64,000 nt of DNA. Origin: an uncultured Chitinophaga sp. (GTDB lineage Bacteria; Bacteroidota; Bacteroidia; 2-12-FULL-35-15). The stretch spans positions 5,160-69,159 of the forward strand of contig CAYWAV010000005.1 of assembly GCA_964456225.1 (NCBI GenBank), given 5' to 3'. This document shows positions 2,768 through 13,810 of this stretch, piece by piece. Each line of letters opens with the position of its first letter. The stretch's first letter is position 1. The notes below the pieces were generated by a model. The model had not been told where the DNA came from, did not search any database, and was given only the letters and a program-made list of their open reading frames with translations. A program made the position numbers and the translations under genes.

Positions 2768-5245
2768 TTATTTCTTTTTACTCACAATTTCAAACTGCTG
2801 AATAATTGATTCTCCTTCTTCATCTACTAAGGTAAGTGTGTGAACGCCTTCATCAGGTGCAAGGCCCATTTGATGATTGCTTTGAGTTGTTCCTAAGAAT
2901 AACCCATCCAGATGCCAATAGATAAGTGTATTGCCTTTGCGATGTGCTACTTGGAAAATAGTTTTTCCCAATGATCCATCAATTTCTACAGGAACATATA
3001 TTTTACTGAATTGCTTTGGATAAATAATCTCCATGCCATTCAAGCCTGTTGTTTCACAATCGCCCCGTAATGGTGGTATTTCTTTATAATTCGTATTTTT
3101 TGATTTGTAATACCATTCCATCGCAGGAGGCAGTACAAACCAACTAATGTGTTTCATTTTATTCACATCTTCACAATTGCTATTTACACGATAGGTTTCG
3201 CTTGCATCCAAATGTATTAACCGATGGTATTTGCAGGGTTCTGTTCTCAATCCATTTTTTGGAATCCAAACTATGTCAACTGGTGCACAAATATCCGTTG
3301 CTCTACTACCACTTTGTTTACAAAGTTTTATTTTCTCCATTTCATCGTAAGGTGGAGTGAACCATTTGCTTGGTTTTAAAACACTAAAAATGTCGAAGAG
3401 GATTGGAGCGGCAGTTTGTAATCCAACCAATCCAGGACGACCTTCACCATCAGCATTTCCAACCCAAACACCAACTACATATTTAGCCGTAACTCCAACG
3501 GCCCAACCATCTCTGTATCCAAAACTGGTTCCTGTTTTCCAAGCTACTTTTGAAGAAGATGTATATTGTTTCCAGCCAGCATCTTCATCTGGTCGAGCTA
3601 CTTCAACCATTGCTTCGAATGTGAAGTAAATGGATGCCGCATCAATTATTGAAGTGCTTTCTAAGTCAGGACTTTTTTCTTCTTGATTGATATAATAAGG
3701 CGGATGGAAATCATTTTTATCATACTTTCCATTGTATTTAGTGTAATGATTTAATGTTCGTGCCATGCTTGCATACATCCCCGTAATATCCCAAAGTTTT
3801 CCTTCCGCACCTCCTAATATTACAGATAATCCATAATGGTCTGGGCTTTTGGTTAAAGTTGTCATTCCGTATTTTTTGAGATTGTAGTTAAATTTTTCAA
3901 TGCCATAGTTTTGTAACATGCGTACAGCAGGAATGTTCAAACTTCTTGCCAAGGCACGTTTGGCGGGAACAGCGCCATCAAATGTTTGATTGTAATTCTG
4001 CGGTGCATAACCAGCAATTTGTGTTGGAATATCAGGAACTAATGTTGTAGATAATATTTCACCATCGTTCAACATGCCCGCGAATAAAAATGGTTTTAAT
4101 ATACTTCCTGTACTTCTTGGCGCAGCAATAACATCTACATCTCCTTCATACTCAGGCTTTCCTTTGTTTGATGTATTCCCAACATATGCTAATACTTTTC
4201 CGGTATTTACATCCAGTACAATTGCACAGGCATTGTGAATTTCATTCCCTCGTAAAATTTTATGATGATTTTCTATGATTGTATTTACACGTTCTTGCAG
4301 ATGTCCGTCAATGGTAGAAGAAATTCTTTGTCCTGAAAAATTTTCTTTTGCAGCTCTTTGTAATAAGTGTGGCGCTATTTGCGGGATGGAATGTGGCTTT
4401 CCTGGTAGCGGTTCTTGTTTGCTTAAATCACACGTTTCTTTATCAATTATTTTAGCAACAAACAATTGGTCCAACAAACGATTTCGTTTTTTTAATAATC
4501 GTTCTTGGTTTTTTCCCGGATAAATTAAACTGGGCGCATTTGGCAAAACGGCTAATGTTGCTGATTCTGCCCAAGATAATTTTGATGGCTCTCTACCAAA
4601 ATAACGCCATGAAGCGGCATCAATACCTACCACGTTGCTTCCAAATGGAGCATTTGATGCATATAAAGCAAGTATTTCTTTTTTTGAATAACTGAATTCT
4701 AGTCGTGTTGCGATAATAGTTTCAATTATCTTTTCGAAGAAAGTACGCTTTTGTCCTTTTCTCGACATGCGAATTACCTGCATAGTAATTGTACTTCCAC
4801 CACTAACTGTTCGTTTTGCTTCAATGTTTTGTTTTGTTGCTCTGATAATTGCTGTAGGACTTAGTCCCCAATGCGAATAAAACCCTCTGTCTTCAAACTG
4901 AACTAGACAATGAATAAATTTTTGCGGTAATTTTTTTGTTAAAGGAAACCTCCATTGTCCATCATCTGCAATTTTAGCGGCTAATAATTCTCCTTTACTA
5001 TCTTCCAGTATTGTGCTTGTTTTGCTTTTGAAAAGAGGGGAAGGTAAACAGAAACAATACCAGATAAAAAGGATGAATAGAATAATTGAATAAATTCCTT
5101 TTTTTGTTTTTAAAAATTGCAATATGGAAGGAATTATTTTCAAATAACTTTTATGAGGTAGAATTTTTATTCGATAATTCTTTGCGTAATTGGCGGGCAG
5201 TTTTTTTGCTGCCATCATGACTCCATCCTGGAGGTCCGAATACAT
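2768..5245 (-). CDS. pbpC: Penicillin-binding protein 1C (transglycosylase/transpeptidase)
   Basis: GT51 motifs (FEDRGFYSHWG, RxxGGSTITMQ), a transpeptidase region, a PbpC-type C-terminal domain and an N-terminal TM. Start is ambiguous: ATG at 5245 or 5218 overlaps the upstream gene by 68-95 nt. An in-frame TTG at 5143 would avoid the overlap. Confidence 0.85.
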   Translation of the reverse strand: MYSDLQDGVMMAAKKLPANYAKNYRIKILPHKSYLKIIPSILQFLKTKKGIYSIILFILFIWYCFCLPSPLFKSKTSTILEDSKGELLAAKIADDGQWRFPLTKKLPQKFIHCLVQFEDRGFYSHWGLSPTAIIRATKQNIEAKRTVSGGSTITMQVIRMSRKGQKRTFFEKIIETIIATRLEFSYSKKEILALYASNAPFGSNVVGIDAASWRYFGREPSKLSWAESATLAVLPNAPSLIYPGKNQERLLKKRNRLLDQLFVAKIIDKETCDLSKQEPLPGKPHSIPQIAPHLLQRAAKENFSGQRISSTIDGHLQERVNTIIENHHKILRGNEIHNACAIVLDVNTGKVLAYVGNTSNKGKPEYEGDVDVIAAPRSTGSILKPFLFAGMLNDGEILSTTLVPDIPTQIAGYAPQNYNQTFDGAVPAKRALARSLNIPAVRMLQNYGIEKFNYNLKKYGMTTLTKSPDHYGLSVILGGAEGKLWDITGMYASMARTLNHYTKYNGKYDKNDFHPPYYINQEEKSPDLESTSIIDAASIYFTFEAMVEVARPDEDAGWKQYTSSSKVAWKTGTSFGYRDGWAVGVTAKYVVGVWVGNADGEGRPGLVGLQTAAPILFDIFSVLKPSKWFTPPYDEMEKIKLCKQSGSRATDICAPVDIVWIPKNGLRTEPCKYHRLIHLDASETYRVNSNCEDVNKMKHISWFVLPPAMEWYYKSKNTNYKEIPPLRGDCETTGLNGMEIIYPKQFSKIYVPVEIDGSLGKTIFQVAHRKGNTLIYWHLDGLFLGTTQSNHQMGLAPDEGVHTLTLVDEEGESIIQQFEIVSKKK

Positions 5246-6044
5246 ACATGAACTTCGCTTTTAAACTGGAAGGCTTTTTTAAATCCTGGCCCATATTTAT
5301 CCACTCATGAAAAACCATTTTAAGTGGATGATGTGTTTTAATATTTTCAGTTAATCCGTAAACAACATTTTCTTTTTCATCTTCTGCCACAAATGTTCCA
5401 AACAGTTTATCCCAAATGATAAATACCATGCCCATGTTTTTGTCAAGATACTTTACATTGCTGGCGTGATGAACCCTGTGATGTGACGGGGTAGACATAA
5501 AATACTCTAAAAAACCAAGTTTCTTTACTGTTTTAGTATGAATTAAAATTCCATATATCTGCGTTGCAGAATAAATAAACATAATGTCGATTCCTTTAAA
5601 ACCTAAAAATGCAAGTGGAATAAAATAAATAAAACGATACAAAGGTTGAAATACAGATGAGCGAAAGCCTACCGTTAAATTAAATTCCTCTGAAGAGTGA
5701 TGTGTAACATGTACAGCCCAAAACATTCTGGAATAATGATCTACACGGTGTAACCAATAATACATAAAATCTTGCGTAACTAATAATATGCTCCAGTATG
5801 CATATTGATTGTTTATTTCAACAAATTTGAATTGGTAGAAATAATTTAAAATAAACAAGCATACACCGCGTACAAGAATATCCAATCCTAAATTTAATGA
5901 TGTGAGGTAAATATTAGCTAATGTTCCTTTAACCGAATAGTAATTTTTGTGATGCAGGTAGCTGAATAAAATTTCAGCTCCAATTACAATGGCATAAATT
6001 GGAGTGGTGATGGCAATCAGTAGCGCTTCTCTGAATTCGTTCAT
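5151..6044 (-). CDS. Sterol desaturase / fatty acid hydroxylase superfamily membrane protein
   Basis: His boxes HRVDH, HVTHH and HHRVHH with multiple TM segments. Confidence 0.8.
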   Translation of the reverse strand: MNEFREALLIAITTPIYAIVIGAEILFSYLHHKNYYSVKGTLANIYLTSLNLGLDILVRGVCLFILNYFYQFKFVEINNQYAYWSILLVTQDFMYYWLHRVDHYSRMFWAVHVTHHSSEEFNLTVGFRSSVFQPLYRFIYFIPLAFLGFKGIDIMFIYSATQIYGILIHTKTVKKLGFLEYFMSTPSHHRVHHASNVKYLDKNMGMVFIIWDKLFGTFVAEDEKENVVYGLTENIKTHHPLKMVFHEWINMGQDLKKPSSLKAKFMYVFGPPGWSHDGSKKTARQLRKELSNKNSTS

Positions 6045-6062
6045 ACTACAAAAGTATATAAA

Positions 6063-6096
6063 AAAGCCATCACGCTAAAAGCGTGATGGCTTTTTA
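6063..6096. terminator. Bidirectional rho-independent terminator
   Basis: GCCATCACGC-taaaa-GCGTGATGGC, a perfect 10-bp stem flanked by A5 and T5 runs. It lies downstream of the 6112..6939 gene. Confidence 0.75.
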
Positions 6097-6111
6097 GGAA
6101 AACTAATTTTA

Positions 6112-6939
6112 TTAACGGATTAATACCTTTTTTGTATAAACGATGTTTTCTTGTGAAATTGTAACAAAATAGATTCCGGCAGTTTCTTTAGATAAATCAA
6201 TGGTGTTTTCTTTGTTGTTTAAACCAGCTGAATATACTTGCTGTCCAATTGAATTCGTAATCTTAACATCCGCATTCACTAATTTTGCTGTTAAGAAATG
6301 AATCATAATGTTTTTATTTGAACTAAAAACGGAAGTAGTGGCAGACATAGCGCTTTCATTTATTCCTACAGGCATTTCTCCGGCAAGAATATATGCATTT
6401 GGAATCGAATTATATGCATAATCTTTAATGGTAAACTGGCTTGCCGTGGCGTCAACATCAAATCTCGCCCAACCATAATGCAATTGTGCCCCAATATAAA
6501 ATTGCAAGCCAACAAATTTATCTGTTTGTCCGATAAAGTTTCCATAGCTAGAACTTGATCCAAAATAACTAGCCATCGACTGGCTGGATCCAAAGTTAAA
6601 TTGTAGGGTTGATTTTATGGTGTCTCCAGAGTTAAGTGCAAAGGGGTAAACATAAGCTCCAACCGTATCTCCCGCAACGCCATTAGCTCCTGTTGGACTG
6701 ATTGCAACTTGTTGTGAAGTATAAGAAGAAGATGTTCCTATATTTAGTTTAATTGTATAATCAAAAACACCACCATTGTCTAAATCCAGATTATATAAAT
6801 TCCCTCCTATATTAATAGTAGAATCAGGGTTTATATCTGAATATATGATTTGTGCATCAGCTTGTGAGCTCATCAATGCAATTGATCCCGCTAAGGCAGA
6901 ATACGATTTTAACTTATTATTTAATGTAGGAGTATTCAT
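6112..6939 (-). CDS. Secreted protein with T9SS C-terminal sorting domain
   Basis: Signal peptide (..ALMSSQADAQ). The C-terminus VKITNSIGQQVY...GIYFVTISQENIVYTKKVLIR is typical of a type-A Por CTD. N-terminal domain is unknown. Confidence 0.7.
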   Translation of the reverse strand: MNTPTLNNKLKSYSALAGSIALMSSQADAQIIYSDINPDSTINIGGNLYNLDLDNGGVFDYTIKLNIGTSSSYTSQQVAISPTGANGVAGDTVGAYVYPFALNSGDTIKSTLQFNFGSSQSMASYFGSSSSYGNFIGQTDKFVGLQFYIGAQLHYGWARFDVDATASQFTIKDYAYNSIPNAYILAGEMPVGINESAMSATTSVFSSNKNIMIHFLTAKLVNADVKITNSIGQQVYSAGLNNKENTIDLSKETAGIYFVTISQENIVYTKKVLIR

Positions 6940-6979
6940 TTTTATTATTGTTTATCAAAGATAATAAAAATTATATGTT

Positions 6980-9535
6980 TTAAGAAGATTTTTTATTTCT
7001 ATAAAGTAAAGGTTCGACACTTTTTATCATGTTGTTTATATTTAGTTCTGCAGCCAAAAAAAAAGATAAATTTTCAGCAATTTCCGATGGATTTTCAATT
7101 ACATCTTTATAGGATACGTGCATGACTTCAAATTGCGGATGGTTCTGAATCCACGAACGGGTTTTTTCTAATTGTTTTATAAATGTATTTGCTAAAACAG
7201 TTGGATATGTTTTCTTCTCAATATCTGACACTTTTCCGAGCATAATTTGTTGTGATTGGATAATTTCCTCCATTTCACGCTCCATAAAAATTACTTTATA
7301 TTGATAGTTAGCTGGTAAATATTGCAGTAATTGACCAATTACTTTTATTACTTTATTCTGACCTTCATTTATCCAAGAATTATCTTTCGCTAAATTTTTT
7401 ACTTTTTGATATTCTAAATATCCTTTAGGATTATTTTCGTCTTCTGTTCTTATGTTATCAGTTAAAATATCTAATCCGCCTGCCTGTAGCATCTGCATCA
7501 TCATTGATGTTCCCGAACGCGGCAAACCCGAAACAATCGTAATAGTGCCTTTAATGTTATTTTTTATAAATGCATTGTGCTTTTCTGCTTCTTCTAAATT
7601 CATAACATTGTTAGTATATAATTTTATCAGATAACTGTGTGCTTTTCTATTGCCCGGTTGAAATGTTGTAACTACTTTAAATGCTTCTACTGCTCTCTCG
7701 TACATTTCTAAACGATAGAACGCTTCTCCTAAAAAATAATGTGCCAGTGGGTTATTGAAGACAAGTGAAACAGAACTTAGTAAATGATCCAAGGCCTTTT
7801 CTAATTGATCTTGACGTAAAAGGGCAATTCCTATTCCCATATGTGCACCAGCATTTTCTGGATCTATTTCTATTGCTTTTTCAAATGCGGTTTGTGCATC
7901 CTTCCATTCTTTGAGTTTAACAAACGCTTCACCAATTTTAACATGTAAGGTTGGCATGTGAGCAATTGTTTTCATTGCTTTTTTGAAAAGCTCCAATGCT
8001 TTTCTGGGTTTGTTTTGAGAGACTAAAAAAACGCCTTCTAAATAGTCTAGTTGTGGCAACTCTTTTTGATCTAGTTGTTTTATTTCTTCAATTACAGAAA
8101 TGCAAGCATCAAATTTTTTTAATTTTTGCAAGCATTCAATGTATTTTAATCCATACCGGGCAACTGTAGGCGATTGCGTGTAAAGTGCTTCTAATATAGG
8201 TTCTGCAAGACTAACTTGTTCTTTATATAAATAAATGCGTGCTAAATTAAATTGTGTTTCATTTACGACTTTCTCCACAGTTTTTGAGCTGTCTGCTGAT
8301 GGTGCTTCCACATAGCCCAATTCAATTAATTGTTTTAATGCTTCTTGAGCAGCCAATGGATCTTGTTGCAATTCTTTTGGATGATTACCAGAATTTCCTT
8401 CAATATTTTCCCAACTATCTATATAAGAAGGGGTAATTTTTTTATCGAATACTTGCGTTAATACTTTTCCATCCATGTCTTTTCCAACCGGCAAACCAAA
8501 AAGCGTTAATATGGTGGGAGTAATATCCAATAAAGTAGCGCCATAAATGCGTTCATCTTTATTTATGTTGGGACCCGAAATACAAAACATTCCAACTTGT
8601 CTATGCTCCAATGCAGGTGCCATTGGTTCTGTTGGTAGTCGTTTTGGACGAAGATGGTCAGAATGAAAACCATGGTCCGAAAGAATAATTATTGTTGCAT
8701 CCTTACCGGCAAGTTTAATGTATCGTTCCAACATCATATCATGAAAACGATAAATACCGTTGATAATATCTTTGTACAAGTCAAATTTTTCATCTGAAAT
8801 CCCCTGCATCTGAGGCGGGTGATATCTCATAAAAGCATGACTCATATGATCAATTGTATCAAAATAAACCGCTGTTAAATCCCATGGTTCGTTTTCCATT
8901 AGCCATGTTGCCGCACCATGAATGGATGCACATTCCGAAAGATTTTTTGCTAGCACAACTAAACTTTTATCTTTTTCCTGATCTACTAAATGTGCTTTTG
9001 GAACAAAAGGAAGGATGTGTTCTGAAGTCAATTCGGTAGGATGTACTCTATACTCTGAAATTATTTTTGCTAATGACTCAGGGAACACTGTGCTGTCCTT
9101 CATTTTCCAATCCTCTATTTTTTCACTAGTTATTTTTTGAAAAAAATTGGAAACCATTACTCCATTGATAGGTTCTGCAGGATTGCTAGGCCACCAACCT
9201 ACGATATTTGATTTTAAATTATTTTGTGATAAAATATTCCATAGTGCTTTACATTTTCTGCTTGTGGAAGTAACCGGACGAATCTCCATTTTATCGGGAA
9301 CGGGCTCGGTAAAATTTAATATGCCGTGTTTATCTCCCATTTTACCTGTTGCAATGGAGGTCCATAAAATAGGTGATAAAACAGGATCAAGAGTTGCGAT
9401 ATCACCCATCGTTCCTTTGTTGATTAATGATTCTAATGAAGGCATAAGTCCTGCATCCAGCAAAGGATTGATGATTTTCCAATCTGCAGCGTCCCAGCCC
9501 AGTACCAACACTTTTTTGGCCAACCGCTCATTCAT
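6980..9535 (-). CDS. Tri-domain fusion: NPP/alkaline-phosphatase-family phosphodiesterase + TPR region + sulfotransferase-like domain
   Basis: N-terminal metal-ligand and nucleophile motifs GWDAADW, SPILWTSIATG, ILSDHGF and HMSHAF. Helical TPR-like repeats across aa ~430-640. C-terminal PRSGTS P-loop-like 5'-PSB motif with a Stf0-like tail. No signal peptide. Confidence 0.8.
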   Translation of the reverse strand: MNERLAKKVLVLGWDAADWKIINPLLDAGLMPSLESLINKGTMGDIATLDPVLSPILWTSIATGKMGDKHGILNFTEPVPDKMEIRPVTSTSRKCKALWNILSQNNLKSNIVGWWPSNPAEPINGVMVSNFFQKITSEKIEDWKMKDSTVFPESLAKIISEYRVHPTELTSEHILPFVPKAHLVDQEKDKSLVVLAKNLSECASIHGAATWLMENEPWDLTAVYFDTIDHMSHAFMRYHPPQMQGISDEKFDLYKDIINGIYRFHDMMLERYIKLAGKDATIIILSDHGFHSDHLRPKRLPTEPMAPALEHRQVGMFCISGPNINKDERIYGATLLDITPTILTLFGLPVGKDMDGKVLTQVFDKKITPSYIDSWENIEGNSGNHPKELQQDPLAAQEALKQLIELGYVEAPSADSSKTVEKVVNETQFNLARIYLYKEQVSLAEPILEALYTQSPTVARYGLKYIECLQKLKKFDACISVIEEIKQLDQKELPQLDYLEGVFLVSQNKPRKALELFKKAMKTIAHMPTLHVKIGEAFVKLKEWKDAQTAFEKAIEIDPENAGAHMGIGIALLRQDQLEKALDHLLSSVSLVFNNPLAHYFLGEAFYRLEMYERAVEAFKVVTTFQPGNRKAHSYLIKLYTNNVMNLEEAEKHNAFIKNNIKGTITIVSGLPRSGTSMMMQMLQAGGLDILTDNIRTEDENNPKGYLEYQKVKNLAKDNSWINEGQNKVIKVIGQLLQYLPANYQYKVIFMEREMEEIIQSQQIMLGKVSDIEKKTYPTVLANTFIKQLEKTRSWIQNHPQFEVMHVSYKDVIENPSEIAENLSFFLAAELNINNMIKSVEPLLYRNKKSS

Positions 9536-9704
9536 TTTTAGAAGTATTTTTTTGTTTTGATTGAAGCTCTTCTCGCTTTTTTTTCCACGCTTTTATTCCC
9601 ACTGCTCCTAATGCAAGTAGCCCCAGTGAGCCATCATAAGGAATTTCAACAGCGTTGATAATTTTTGTTGAAGCAGAATTTATAGAATTATTTTTCTTCC
9701 TCAT
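9528..9704 (-). CDS. Small membrane peptide (58 aa), translationally coupled to the downstream fusion gene
   Basis: [58 protein letters not shown]. Contains one TM helix followed by a KKKRE basic cluster. Its stop overlaps the next start as ATGAATGA. The longer ORF reaches 9791 and the start is uncertain. Confidence 0.35.
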
Positions 9705-9906
9705 TTTTTTTGCTGTAAAAATATGGTTTTTCAGGAAGATTTGCCATGAAACCCTTGATTTAAGGTGTATTTTAGACTCGTTTATTAACAAAATGCCCGT
9801 TTTTCAACAATTTTACAATTTTTTTGCCTCAAAACTTGCCTTGTGTATGTTTTCTGCATTACATTCGTTATATAAATTAATGTTTAACCCAAAAAAACAA
9901 AACAAG

Positions 9907-10182
9907 ATGAACAAAGCAGAATTAGTTGATGCAATCGCAGCAGAAACAAAATTAACAAAAGCTGATGCTGGAAGAGCATTAGAAGCATTCGTTAACGCAA
10001 CAACAAAAGCACTTAAAAAAGGTGATAGAGTTGCATTAGTAGGATTTGGTTCTTTCTCAGTTTCTAAAAGAGCTGCTAGAAATGGCCGTAATCCACAAAC
10101 AGGAAAAGCTATTAAAATTGCTGCTAAAAAAGTAGCAAAATTTAAAGCTGGAGCTGATTTAGCTAAAACAGTTAACAAATAA
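9907..10182 (+). CDS. hup: HU family DNA-binding protein
   Basis: [29 protein letters not shown]...[22 protein letters not shown], a canonical 91-aa HU. The upstream part of ORF 9655..10182 is rejected. Confidence 0.9.
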
Positions 10183-10195
10183 TTTTGTCAACTAG

Positions 10196-10232
10196 AAAAA
10201 GCCCTCTTGCTTTTAGCAAGAGGGCTTTTTTA
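10196..10232. terminator. Bidirectional rho-independent terminator
   Basis: GCCCTCTTGC-tttta-GCAAGAGGGC followed by T6. It sits between the convergent hup and 10236..10721 genes. Confidence 0.75.
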
Positions 10233-10235
10233 TTT

Positions 10236-10721
10236 TTATTTATTTGTTGTTTTTATTATCCCCATTTTCGGTTCGTATTTTATTGTGTCAATATGTTCTT
10301 CTTTTTTGATGGTATCTTTTAACATTACTTCTCCTAAGGTTCTTTCTATTTCAATATCTCCCACCAAATGATTTTCGGTAGTTCTGCAACTAAACAAGCT
10401 TGTTCCGAAAGCGAAAAATAATGCAATTGCAAATGCTTTTCTGTAAGAAATATTTTTTGGTAAAAGATATAAAGGGATATTTATATTGAATGCGCTTTTT
10501 GGTTTTTCATCTAATTGAATTGTATTAAATCGACCGCAAACTTTCTTGTCGCTATTTTCTAATAAAGTGTTTTTAATTTCTTCGGGAGATTTGTTTGTAA
10601 AATCTACTACTGTTTTGCAACACTTTCCACAAAACGAACCTTGCTGATTAGGAGTCATTTTGTTCCAATCTTCATGACATGGTTTTGGGATGCTGATTCT
10701 TATTTCATTTGAATTTTCCAT
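10236..10721 (-). CDS. Hypothetical protein with N-terminal Cys-rich (zinc-ribbon-like) motif and a TM segment
   Basis: CHEDWNKMTPNQQGSFCGKCCKTVVDF (C-x17-C-x2-CC) and VCGRF, plus hydrophobic FAIALFFAFGTSLF. Confidence 0.55.
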   Translation of the reverse strand: MENSNEIRISIPKPCHEDWNKMTPNQQGSFCGKCCKTVVDFTNKSPEEIKNTLLENSDKKVCGRFNTIQLDEKPKSAFNINIPLYLLPKNISYRKAFAIALFFAFGTSLFSCRTTENHLVGDIEIERTLGEVMLKDTIKKEEHIDTIKYEPKMGIIKTTNK

Positions 10722-10899: not shown

Positions 10900-12864
10900 T
10901 TGAAAAGACATTCCTACATAGTATTCATTTTTTGTTTTGTCACATCTTTTGTTTCTGCACAAAAAGATGCTACAACGGATAGTTTATTAAACTTATTATC
11001 ACAAAAAATCACAGATACCACTAAAGTAAATGTGCTGAATGATCTAGCACAAAAAGTAGTAGATTTTCCTGATAGTAGTTATAGGTATGCATCCGTTGCA
11101 TTAGAATTAGCTCAAAAAATTAATTTTAAAAGAGGGTTGGCTAGATCATATTCCAGAATGGGAGAAGTGTATAACGCTAAAGGAAATTATAATCTCGCAC
11201 TAAAAAATTTACATGAATCATATCGTATTTATGATGAACTGGGAAATAAAAAACGCATGAGTATTGTAATGAATTCAATCGGAAATACACATTTGGGAAA
11301 TAGAGATAACAATAAAGCATTAGAGTCATTTAGGAAGTGTTATCAAATAGGTCTGGAAATAAATGACAATACGTCTTTGGCTCTTTCCTCTTTTGGGGTC
11401 GGCAATATTTTTGGAGAATTGGGTATAATAGATAGCGCTACAAAATATCTTAATTATGCATTGTCTGCTTTTTCCAAAGAAAAAAACAAGTATGGAGAAG
11501 CAATGACATTCGCCTTGATTGGTCAGTTGGAAAACAGAGAAAAAAAGTATGCCGAGTCTTTGCATTCTTTGAACAAATCGATGAAGCTGTTTAAGGAGAT
11601 TAATCAAATGTATGGTGTTGGTGTCGTGTCTCAGTCGCTAGGAAAAACCTATTATGATAGTGGTGACAATAAAAATGCATTGAAAAATTATTTAGAGGCA
11701 TTTGATGTTCATTTAAAACGGAATGCTTTTGACAATATAAAAGAAACTTGCCAAGAAATTTCGTTGGTTTATAAAAAGTTGGGCGATTACAAAAGCTCTC
11801 TTGCATACCATGAGTTGTATGTATTTTATAAGGATTCAGTATTTAATGAAAAAAGTAGAAAACAGCTTTTGGAGATTGAAACACAATATCAAACTCAGAA
11901 TAAAGAAAAAGAAATACAGCTCAAAAATTTGGAGTTGGAAAAATCAAATGATGCTATAAAAAGCAGGACAATTATTTTGTTTGTCTTTATTTTTGTTTCA
12001 TTGATTTTTTTGATAATGGCTTTTTTTGTTTACAAACAATACAAGCAAAAGAAAATTGCCAACATCAGAATAATGAAGCAGAAAGATGTTATTGAGGCAA
12101 AAAACAAAAGTATTACTGATAGTATTCGCTATGCACAATATATTCAAGAATCAATATTGCCCGATGATGATATGACTTATTCTCTTTTGAGAGAATCATT
12201 TGTTTTGTACATGCCTAAAGATATTGTAAGTGGAGATTTTTATTGGATTGTTGCGTCTGAAAGCTATGTGTATGCTGCTGTTGTTGATTGTACAGGGCAT
12301 GGAGTGCCTGGCGCTTTTATGAGTATGGTTGGATATAATTCTTTAAAGAATGCCATTAAACAGCTAAAAACACCAGATACTTCTCAAGTACTTTCATTTT
12401 TACAGCAAGAGGTTAGAGAGTTGTTTAAACACAATTATAATAGTACAAATGTGCGTGACGGGATGGATCTTTCATTGATACGTATTGATAGAAAGAACAT
12501 GAAATTGCAGTTTTCTGGTGCAAACAATCCTCTTTGTTACGTGAGGGATAATACGTTTATTGAGTGCAAAGGTGATAAGGTTGCAATTAGCGCACACACC
12601 GAAAACAGGAACACTGTTTTTACTCAACATGAAATAGATATTAAAAAAGGAGATGCTCTTTATTTATTTAGCGATGGATATGTTGATCAGTTTGGTGGTC
12701 CGAAAGGAAAAAAATTTAAGTACAAGCAATTTCAACAGATGATTTTGAGTGCGGCTCATTTGCCTATGAATGAACAGAAAAATTTATTTCAGAAAATAAT
12801 CAAAAAATGGCAAGGTGATTTGGAGCAGATAGATGATATTTTAGTCCTAGGATTAAAAATTTAA
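10900..12864 (+). CDS. TPR-repeat sensor / SpoIIE-type PP2C serine phosphatase
   Basis: Signal peptide, TPR repeats, a single TM (IILFVFIFVSLIFLIMAFFVY) and a C-terminal PP2C/SpoIIE block (DIVSGDFYW..DCTGHGVPGAFMS..FSDGYVDQFGG). The apparent start codon is TTG. Confidence 0.85.
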   Translation: MKRHSYIVFIFCFVTSFVSAQKDATTDSLLNLLSQKITDTTKVNVLNDLAQKVVDFPDSSYRYASVALELAQKINFKRGLARSYSRMGEVYNAKGNYNLALKNLHESYRIYDELGNKKRMSIVMNSIGNTHLGNRDNNKALESFRKCYQIGLEINDNTSLALSSFGVGNIFGELGIIDSATKYLNYALSAFSKEKNKYGEAMTFALIGQLENREKKYAESLHSLNKSMKLFKEINQMYGVGVVSQSLGKTYYDSGDNKNALKNYLEAFDVHLKRNAFDNIKETCQEISLVYKKLGDYKSSLAYHELYVFYKDSVFNEKSRKQLLEIETQYQTQNKEKEIQLKNLELEKSNDAIKSRTIILFVFIFVSLIFLIMAFFVYKQYKQKKIANIRIMKQKDVIEAKNKSITDSIRYAQYIQESILPDDDMTYSLLRESFVLYMPKDIVSGDFYWIVASESYVYAAVVDCTGHGVPGAFMSMVGYNSLKNAIKQLKTPDTSQVLSFLQQEVRELFKHNYNSTNVRDGMDLSLIRIDRKNMKLQFSGANNPLCYVRDNTFIECKGDKVAISAHTENRNTVFTQHEIDIKKGDALYLFSDGYVDQFGGPKGKKFKYKQFQQMILSAAHLPMNEQKNLFQKIIKKWQGDLEQIDDILVLGLKI

Positions 12865-12928: not shown

Positions 12929-13810
12929 ATGAAAAAATTAGTTTCTCTCTTACTTATTCTTTTTTGTTTATTGCTAAAAGGTTATGCATTTGAAAATGAT
13001 ACAACCAAGAGTAAGGTTCTTGGGCCATCAAAGTATCCTGATTTGTCTTATATAAAAGACAATACACGTAGTAAAGAAGTGACTCCTTATCCTTCTTTAA
13101 GAGAAGCAGATGTTATGTGGAGCAAAAGAGTTTGGCGAGTAATCGACTTAAGAGAAAAAATGAATCATCCTTTATATTATCCTGATTCACCTGTGTTGGA
13201 TAGGAAGAGTTTATTTGATGTGATTTTGGATGGTGCTTTAAACGGAGGGAAAATAACCTGTTTCGATAATGCGGCTACAGATGATCAATTCCGCTACGAA
13301 ATGACAATGACGGAGGTTGCTATGAGAATGAATCCATCTGTAACAAAAATGATAGAACGAATTGAAGAACAAGGTGTTTTTGACCCCGTGGATATTCCTG
13401 AACCTATAACTACAGCACAAGTTTGGAAGTATTGGGTGAAAGAAGATTGGTTTTATGATAAACAAAGATCAGTTATGGATGTACGAATCATAGGACTTTG
13501 TCCGTTAATAGAGAAAGTTTCCGAGTCTGGAGAGCATTTAGGTGCAGATAAACCCCTTTTCTGGATCTATTTTCCAGAAGCTCGTCCGGTGTTCGCAACT
13601 TCAGAAGTCTTTATGCGAAATAATGACGCTGAAAGAAGAACACTGGACGATATCTTCTGGAAACGAATGTTTTCAAGTTATATCCGAAAAGAAAGCAATG
13701 TGTACGACAGAGGAATTTACGATTACAAAGTGGGATTGGAACAACAATTAGAGTCAGAACGTGTAAAGAATGACATCTTTATTTACGAACACGATTTGTG
13801 GCATTTTTGA
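12929..13810 (+). CDS. GldN/PorN-like periplasmic protein (tentative), found without gldKLM
   Basis: Signal peptide. The motif ADVMWSKRVWRVIDLREKMNHPLYYP resembles the conserved GldN signature, recalled from memory rather than confirmed. The gene itself is high confidence; the family call is moderate. Confidence 0.45.
   Translation: MKKLVSLLLILFCLLLKGYAFENDTTKSKVLGPSKYPDLSYIKDNTRSKEVTPYPSLREADVMWSKRVWRVIDLREKMNHPLYYPDSPVLDRKSLFDVILDGALNGGKITCFDNAATDDQFRYEMTMTEVAMRMNPSVTKMIERIEEQGVFDPVDIPEPITTAQVWKYWVKEDWFYDKQRSVMDVRIIGLCPLIEKVSESGEHLGADKPLFWIYFPEARPVFATSEVFMRNNDAERRTLDDIFWKRMFSSYIRKESNVYDRGIYDYKVGLEQQLESERVKNDIFIYEHDLWHF

Follow-up and report, generated by a model that had tools for sequence, protein, structure and literature searches.

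A conserved module of a putative phosphoesterase-TPR-sulfotransferase fusion enzyme and a micro-protein, linked to a type IX secretion cargo family in Bacteroidota

Organization of the three-gene unit

The window analysed here is a stretch of 64,000 nucleotides from an uncultured Chitinophaga sp. (assembly GCA_964456225.1, contig CAYWAV010000005.1, positions 5,160 to 69,159 of the forward strand), and from its minus strand a compact unit of three genes can be deduced, encoding a micro-protein of 58 aa, an 851-aa fusion enzyme and a cargo protein of the type IX secretion system (T9SS). The enzyme combines a phosphoesterase domain of the alkaline phosphatase (AlkP) superfamily, a region of tetratricopeptide repeats (TPR) and a domain bearing the sequence features of sulfotransferases that use 3'-phosphoadenosine-5'-phosphosulfate (PAPS). 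While components of these kinds are already known, the three-domain combination, the obligate micro-protein and the linkage to a single family of T9SS cargo are undescribed. In the 81 loci compared (80 fetched loci and the window, to which all locus counts below refer), the pair of micro-protein and enzyme is the conserved core of the module, and the link to the cargo is a lineage-specific feature of Bacteroidota and Chlorobiota.

The enzyme open reading frame (ORF) spans positions 6980..9535 (-) and is composed of a domain resembling nucleotide pyrophosphatases/phosphodiesterases (NPP) with a putative two-metal centre (aa 1-415, 8291..9535), seven TPR-like repeats built from 14 helices (aa 416-660, 7556..8290) and the PAPS-type sulfotransferase domain (aa 661-851, 6983..7555). 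Directly upstream, the micro-protein gene (9528..9704, (-)) was recognised by its ORF from an ATG codon and by a hidden Markov model (HMM) of the peptide; the N-terminus of the product is variable, its C-terminal tail is rich in Lys and Glu, and the mechanical ORF list gives a TTG at 9791 as alternative start, which would extend it to 87 aa. The cargo gene (6112..6939, (-), 275 aa) follows the enzyme gene after a spacer of 40 nt and encodes a signal region (aa 1-30) with an A|Q cleavage site, followed by an N-domain of uncharacterised kind (aa 31-205, 6325-6849, (-)) and, at the C-terminus, a sorting domain of type A (aa ~208-275, within 6112..6939).

Stop codon of the micro-protein gene and start codon of the enzyme gene overlap within 8 nt (ATGAATGA, 9528..9535, (-)), and the unit is closed by an intrinsic-terminator-like hairpin (6061..6095, (-)) in which a T-run comes after a 16-bp stem including 7 GC pairs. 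No comparable hairpin was found on this strand between the three genes in the hairpin scan. Hence, two suggestions of the initial annotation of this stretch, made from the sequence without database searches, are borne out, namely that the small ORF is translationally coupled, for which a corresponding arrangement recurs in other loci, and that a strong terminator is present only after the cargo gene. An Rfam scan of positions 5900-10400 gave nothing over threshold, and the PADLOC defence models returned only a trivial TPR match.

Domains, conserved residues and distribution of the fusion enzyme

The proposed tri-domain architecture is well reflected in family models. PF01663 (Phosphodiest) matches aa 9-291 with 84.8 bits (cutoff 23), a dozen TPR models from Pfam match aa ~430-640, and PF13469 (Sulfotransfer_3) matches the C-terminus with 32.7 bits (cutoff 27), so that the last domain does correspond to a sulfotransferase model; PF13469 is also found in the precomputed annotation of nearly all listed full-length homologues. 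A weak match to PF00685 (Sulfotransfer_1, 18.5 bits) stays under the cutoff of 22, and no Stf0 family model from Pfam or NCBIfam was obtained at E ≤ 0.1, so that the previous assignment to the Stf0 type has to be replaced by Sulfotransfer_3. An AlphaFold model calculated from an alignment of 26 homologues (predicted local distance difference test (pLDDT) 84.8, predicted template modelling score 0.71) is tripartite, with an alpha/beta domain of AlkP core fold (aa 1-~415), a series of 14 helices (aa 416-660) and a compact alpha/beta domain (aa 664-851). In Foldseek searches, the TPR region is best matched by consensus TPR proteins and by the TPR superhelices of OGT and SPINDLY, whereas among the best 50-60 fold-search matches, which are dominated by AlkP and TPR domains, no sulfotransferase fold is present. 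When a profile of the C-terminal domain was compared with the PDB, cytosolic sulfotransferases (SULTs) were matched at E-values of 0.003-0.3 with alignments across the R-x7-S region of 3'-phosphate binding (3'-PB), and tyrosylprotein sulfotransferases (TPSTs) at the PRSGTS loop of 5'-phosphosulfate binding (5'-PSB). In these alignments, PRSGTS (aa 672-677) and R753-x7-S761 coincide with PKSGTT and RNxxDxxVS of the SULT1 structures. By sequence, the domain thus qualifies as a PAPS-dependent sulfotransferase.

All motifs initially highlighted, GWDAADW, ILSDHGF, HMSHAF (as part of DHMSHAF) and PRSGTS, are present, and their key residues are conserved in the 80 homologues retrieved with the fetched loci (43-100% identity). 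D15, D229, H233, D287, H288 and H311, representing the metal-ligand set D, D-x3-H, D-H and H, are kept in at least 79 of these enzymes, with H311 being assigned as ligand from motif and invariance and not from coordinates. In the transferase domain, R673, T676, S677, R753 and S761 are invariant. As the candidate catalytic residues are invariant or nearly so, both catalytic domains appear to be under selection to work. Mean conservation is lowest in the TPR region (0.51, compared with 0.71 in the phosphoesterase and 0.61 in the sulfotransferase domain). A Thr within SPILWTSIATG (Thr59) had been proposed as nucleophile; however, the aligned position is Ser54 in LSPILW, which is found in 80 of 80 homologues, aligns with the nucleophile Thr64 of PhnA and is in the same register relative to NPP (Thr90) when counting back from the conserved TG. 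With a Ser at the position of the Thr nucleophile, as in alkaline phosphatase, the enzyme is by sequence a member of the AlkP superfamily with NPP-like fold and Ser54 as putative nucleophile, not a canonical NPP. The first beta-strand of the AlphaFold model begins at residue 8 and leaves no room for a signal peptide, in agreement with the original reading, and a PAPS-using enzyme is necessarily cytoplasmic.

Compared with known systems, the N-terminal domain resembles Xac NPP, ENPP4/6/7 and PhnA in the PF01663 match, the two-metal ligand set and a 'TG...HGI' motif after the nucleophile. Besides the Ser nucleophile, it differs in that the phosphoryl-contacting Asn of NPP is replaced by Gly in 65 of 80 homologues, and in a helical insert at about aa 130-215, the lack of a signal peptide in a cytoplasmic protein and the fusion to TPR and sulfotransferase domains. 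The C-terminal domain shares the 5'-PSB PRSGTS, the Arg...Ser pair of the 3'-PB motif and a PF13469 score over the gathering cutoff with PAPS sulfotransferases such as cytosolic SULTs, TPST, RaxST and NodH, but is very compact (~190 aa), matches solved structures only at E-values of 0.003 or weaker, lacks a Stf0 match and is placed behind TPR and AlkP-type domains. In OGT, SPINDLY and HMW1C, a TPR or all-alpha domain likewise stands directly N-terminal to the transferase; the transferase, however, is a GT41 glycosyltransferase in these proteins and a sulfotransferase here, where a phosphoesterase domain and a dedicated micro-protein are added.

More than 120 full-length homologues are listed in the protein database, with 51-89% identity, lengths of about 850 aa throughout and the same three domains, bearing solely the names 'alkaline phosphatase family protein', 'hypothetical protein' or 'predicted AlkP superfamily phosphohydrolase/.../TPR'. 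In a collection of one genome per species, at least 550 matching stretches were detected. Among the matches listed, carriers are nearly all metagenome-assembled genomes (MAGs) of Bacteroidota (Chitinophagales, Flavobacteriales, Bacteroidales, Saprospiraceae and Vicingaceae), with few in Chlorobiota and in Thiotrichaceae/Ca. Halobeggiatoa. Neither Pfam nor NCBIfam contains a family for the fusion or for the micro-protein, and a full-text literature search turned up no account of the micro-protein motif, the fusion or COG3379-TPR-sulfotransferase proteins, in line with the early impression of an undescribed family. MAG JAAFIA01 has two copies of the enzyme gene, one with a separate micro-protein gene (L021) and one with the micro-protein fused in frame (L067), and in L071 a second copy of 818 aa lies between cargo paralogues. 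On the gammaproteobacterial Thiotrichaceae contigs L081-L083, genes for HTH_Rpn_C and reverse transcriptase come after the micro-protein-enzyme pair, and AAA-ATPase/PD-(D/E)XK genes are located near the module in L047, which suggests a mobile or recently transferred context in these loci.

The micro-protein and the secreted cargo family

Homologues of the micro-protein were searched for by a regular expression and subsequently by an HMM built from 62 gap-free cores. Exactly one copy is encoded on the same strand directly upstream of the enzyme gene in 77 of the 80 fetched loci and in the window (78/81). In 75 of these 77 loci, the end of the small ORF falls into a range from 133 nt before to 19 nt after the estimated start of the enzyme, most commonly a few nucleotides into the enzyme gene, and the overlap of 8 nt is also found in the Thiotrichaceae loci L081-L083. 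The core comprises 25 residues without gaps, starting with I or V, and is kept across phyla. The sequences on either side of it are variable, with an N-terminus often of the type x-T-x-D-G-x-x-F-x-I-P and a tail of 15-60 residues rich in K, E and Q. Database entries include 258 small homologues of 50-80 aa, among them a near-identical 58-aa protein, all annotated as 'hypothetical' and none with a Pfam domain. The three loci with no micro-protein gene nearby (L030, L041 and L053) encode enzymes without deviation at highly conserved positions.

In three independent sequences (P0107, L067 and the fragment P0246), micro-protein and enzyme share a single reading frame as a natural fusion, with the micro-protein at the N-terminus and its K/E-rich tail as the linker. 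P0246 originates from a homologue search with the fused N-terminus that yielded mostly contig-end fragments, and it was the one fused fragment added to the alignment for an AlphaFold model of the natural fusion P0107. In this model, the motif consists of two short helices with a break at pLDDT values of 83-90, despite a coverage of this region by only two sequences, while the linker is at about 50. This confidence resembles that of a docked element, and docking onto the enzyme may be envisaged. Near-obligate synteny, translational coupling and recurrent fusion argue for an enzyme subunit. Most likely, the micro-protein is a soluble and tightly bound partner, which would in effect represent an N-terminal helical element split off from the enzyme, and it is unlikely to be a membrane peptide or a substrate. 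That the three genes are merely juxtaposed by chance, with the small ORF being a non-coding intergenic artefact, might be supposed from its shortness, its position in a 380-nt divergent intergenic region and the annotation of its homologues solely as 'hypothetical'. The probability of this is practically nil, as it is already refuted by the comparative data, with the gap-free core in nearly all loci across phyla, always one copy directly upstream and in-frame fusions in three lineages.

The initial annotation had described the product as a small membrane peptide, and it might indeed anchor the enzyme to the inner membrane in an N-out/C-in orientation, with a lipid- or undecaprenyl-linked envelope precursor as acceptor, for example the glycolipid of type A T9SS cargo. 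Consistent with an anchor are a basic cluster after the hydrophobic run, an orientation in the natural fusions compatible with a cytoplasmic enzyme, Kyte-Doolittle (KD) values of at least 1.6 over 15 residues in 13 of 62 homologues and systematic, albeit sub-threshold matches to models of tripartite sorting signals (PFE-CTERM in 14, XDP1 in 12 and PEP-CTERM in 10 of 32 members). However, the best 19-residue KD window has a median of only 1.19 and reaches 1.6 in just 2 of 62 homologues, and a charged or His residue interrupts the G13..W28 segment in 55 of 62, so that the micro-protein does not offer the roughly 19 hydrophobic residues without internal charge of a single-pass membrane segment. 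Both flanks of the run are basic, favouring neither topology, the AlphaFold model shows two short helices instead of one long helix, and the conservation is far above the needs of an anchor. Hence, with a hydrophobic run too short and usually interrupted by charge, the micro-protein is probably not a membrane peptide, and the anchor reading is considered rather unlikely. A function as sorting signal was rejected as well, since all scores are under the cutoffs (at best 18.3 versus 24 for NF050011, and 14 versus 20.7 for PF07589) and the motif is not C-terminal in a signal-peptide protein as in PEP-CTERM or PFE-CTERM proteins, but mid-protein, or N-terminal in the fusions, and without a signal peptide; an exosortase gene was not found near the module. 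The matches can be read as compositional resemblance to a Pro/Glu motif, a Gly/Ala/Leu-rich run and a basic cluster rather than membership.

Another possibility is that the micro-protein is itself the acceptor, resembling RaxX or the precursor of a peptide made on the ribosome and modified after translation (RiPP), with the core as leader bound by the TPR and the variable tail or flank being modified. A small ORF directly upstream of a modifying enzyme with peptide-binding TPR would fit this, as would the leader/core logic of conserved core and variable flanks and the Tyr next to Asp in the micro-protein from the window (IPYDGS). In addition, RaxST of Xanthomonas oryzae is a cytoplasmic PAPS sulfotransferase genetically linked to secretion and to the ~60-aa peptide RaxX, which it sulfates. 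RaxX, however, has a conserved sulfated Tyr, a cleaved leader and a type I export system encoded nearby, and RaxST is devoid of TPR or AlkP domains. In contrast, the core of the 62 micro-proteins contains no invariant Ser, Thr or Tyr, with Ser14 being replaced by Ala or Asn in 7 of 62, and the Tyr of the window is not conserved. The tails are of low complexity (K/E/Q) and serve as linker to the enzyme in the natural fusions, no conserved protease or transporter gene was found in the 80 neighbourhoods, and the micro-protein is without signal peptide. On this balance, a role as acceptor appears decidedly improbable.

The third gene encodes a T9SS cargo of type A, as deduced from a C-terminal Por_Secre_tail domain (PF18962, 34.4 bits versus a cutoff of 27; TIGR04183, 40.8 versus 23) and an N-terminal Sec signal, the A|Q cleavage site being read from the sequence. 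A profile of the cargo also matches solved T9SS C-terminal domains, whereas outside the sorting domain no sequence match in Pfam, NCBIfam or the PDB was obtained. In 61 of 81 loci, homologues of the N-domain (E-values from 1e-16 to 1e-105) are encoded no more than 6 kb away from the enzyme, mostly directly 3' and in the same orientation, with 30-110 nt in between, and often as 2-6 tandem paralogues. The three genes are therefore adjacent in most other genomes, and the operon-like tie to the cargo gene envisaged from the window alone can be confirmed. Micro-protein, enzyme and cargo are syntenic across loci in which the other neighbours of the module vary from lineage to lineage; this recurrence in changing surroundings indicates that the grouping is more than chance, and that the link is to one specific cargo family and not to T9SS sorting domains in general. 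Six tandem cargo paralogues are present in L025. Within the cargo family, an invariant Tyr is located inside the signal region (KLKxYSALAG; window positions 6850-6939, (-)), which is unusual for a signal peptide, and the mature N-terminus is conserved as Q-I-x-Y-T-D-x-N-P-D. A recognition or modification site could be located here. A profile-profile comparison addressing mimicry of the cargo signal region by the micro-protein gave no similarity between the two.

Possible role of the module and genomic surroundings

As a function of the module, we tentatively favour the sulfation of polypeptides, which is possible though by no means assured. In this scheme, enzyme and micro-protein would form a PAPS-dependent complex that binds a polypeptide via the TPR superhelix and presents it to the sulfotransferase, as modelled on OGT, SPINDLY and HMW1C, and sulfates it in the cytoplasm before export, while the phosphoesterase domain would contribute a coupled phosphoester step, either by removing the inhibitory product 3'-phosphoadenosine-5'-phosphate (PAP) or by dephosphorylating the acceptor. 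A polypeptide acceptor is favoured by the TPR superhelix standing directly N-terminal to the transferase, by OGT and SPINDLY being among its best fold matches and by the TPR being the least conserved part of the enzyme. The use of PAPS is favoured by the 5'-PSB and 3'-PB motifs and by the genomic proximity of adenosine 5'-phosphosulfate (APS) kinase. The gene for this kinase (PF01583) is no more than a gene or two away from that of the enzyme in 4 of 80 loci, which represent at least three lineages (L020, 8604-9161, with 218 bits; L042, 5216-5803; L063, 5283-5819; L064, 2833-3375), and directly adjoins it in L020 and L042. This fits PAPS use or supply; the 64-kb window itself contains no such gene.

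In Bacteroidota, the acceptor would most plausibly be a member of the presumably co-transcribed T9SS cargo family in its form before secretion, to be exported thereafter by Sec and T9SS. The scenario in its complete form, a cytoplasmic protein-sulfation system in which a micro-protein-activated or -specified enzyme sulfates a dedicated secreted family (T9SS cargo in Bacteroidota) prior to export and the phosphoesterase recycles PAP or swaps phosphate for sulfate on the acceptor, would, if true, tie a bacterial sulfation pathway to type IX secretion for the first time; taken as a whole, it is rather unlikely. Precedents for cytoplasmic modifiers of secreted products are HMW1C-HMW1 and RaxST-RaxX, HMW1C being encoded together with its secreted adhesin substrate. 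Moreover, bacterial sulfotransferases have been predicted to modify co-encoded secreted proteins (Iyer et al., 2010; PMC2938197).

Several observations weigh against polypeptide sulfation, and particularly against the cargo as acceptor. The cargo N-domain family is far more common than the neighbourhood of the enzyme, with 4124 cluster representatives matched in a large library. Moreover, the inspected Thiotrichaceae contigs L081-L083 carry micro-protein and enzyme with no cargo nearby, and about 20 Bacteroidota loci are likewise without T9SS cargo in the vicinity. Since the module exists without a nearby T9SS cargo, the latter cannot be the universal acceptor. For the sulfation of a Sec substrate before export, we know of no bacterial precedent. 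As for the chemistry, NPP-type enzymes cut diesters and pyrophosphates and not the bond holding the 3'-phosphate of PAP, and the closest sequence-profile matches of the transferase domain are small-molecule SULTs, albeit at weak E-values. Furthermore, mutual information with average product correction (APC), calculated between the micro-protein core and the 851 enzyme columns from 62 pairs, did not cluster on any domain, the top 100 pairs falling to the AlkP (42), TPR (37) and sulfotransferase (21) parts compared with 49, 28 and 23 expected.

Some of these points would suit an enzyme acting on a cytoplasmic small molecule, nucleotide or glycan, with the TPR serving oligomerisation or micro-protein binding and the cargo being merely co-regulated, or perhaps binding the sulfated product outside the cell. 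Micro-protein-enzyme pairs without cargo occur in Thiotrichaceae and some Bacteroidota loci, the matched transferases are cytosolic small-molecule SULTs, and nucleotides or lipid head groups are the usual substrates of NPP-like domains. Nevertheless, proximity of the cargo in three quarters of the loci, across orders and with repeated tandem expansion, points to a functional tie, a seven-repeat TPR beside a catalytic domain is typical of protein-directed enzymes, and no genes of small-molecule or glycan biosynthesis are conserved nearby. We thus regard a small-molecule acceptor as rather doubtful and polypeptide sulfation as the reading to be preferred.

The sulfation of proteins and peptides, well established in eukaryotes, is to our knowledge almost unknown in bacteria, RaxST-RaxX being the main example we are aware of. 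The module described here is widespread, with both catalytic centres strictly conserved and a recurrent tie to one T9SS family. If its acceptor is a polypeptide, a new post-translational modification would be added to the surface biology of Bacteroidota, providing a hypothesis for T9SS that is testable by mass spectrometry. Even with a small-molecule acceptor, the fusion of AlkP-type phosphoesterase and sulfotransferase and the split or fused micro-protein element would be new and testable. The micro-protein also exemplifies conserved small ORFs in 'intergenic' DNA that are missed or left unnamed.

Beyond the unit, a gene for a HU-family DNA-binding protein (PF00216, 112.7 bits) lies divergently at 9910-10182 (+), and a hairpin with a 17-bp stem 3' of it (10195-10231) could terminate transcription both ways. 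It is followed by the gene for a Cys-rich protein of 161 aa (10236-10721, (-)) with CxxC pairs near the N-terminus, a hydrophobic segment in the middle and no Pfam match; a few relatives also carry it upstream of the module (cluster c16). On the other side, beyond the terminator, genes for an OlsE-like fatty-acid hydroxylase (PF04116, 5151-6044, (-)) and a PBP1C-type penicillin-binding protein (2768-5245, (-)) are found, the ORFs of which, as mechanically listed, overlap by about 95 nt (5151-5245); synteny of both with the module is limited to about 10 close relatives. A stand-alone GldN-like protein (PF19841, 240 bits), homologous to a core component of T9SS and gliding, is encoded at 12929-13810 (+), about 3 kb from the module, next to a gene for a protein with TPR and SpoIIE-type phosphatase domains (10900-12864, (+)), and synteny of these two genes with the module is restricted to the closest relatives.

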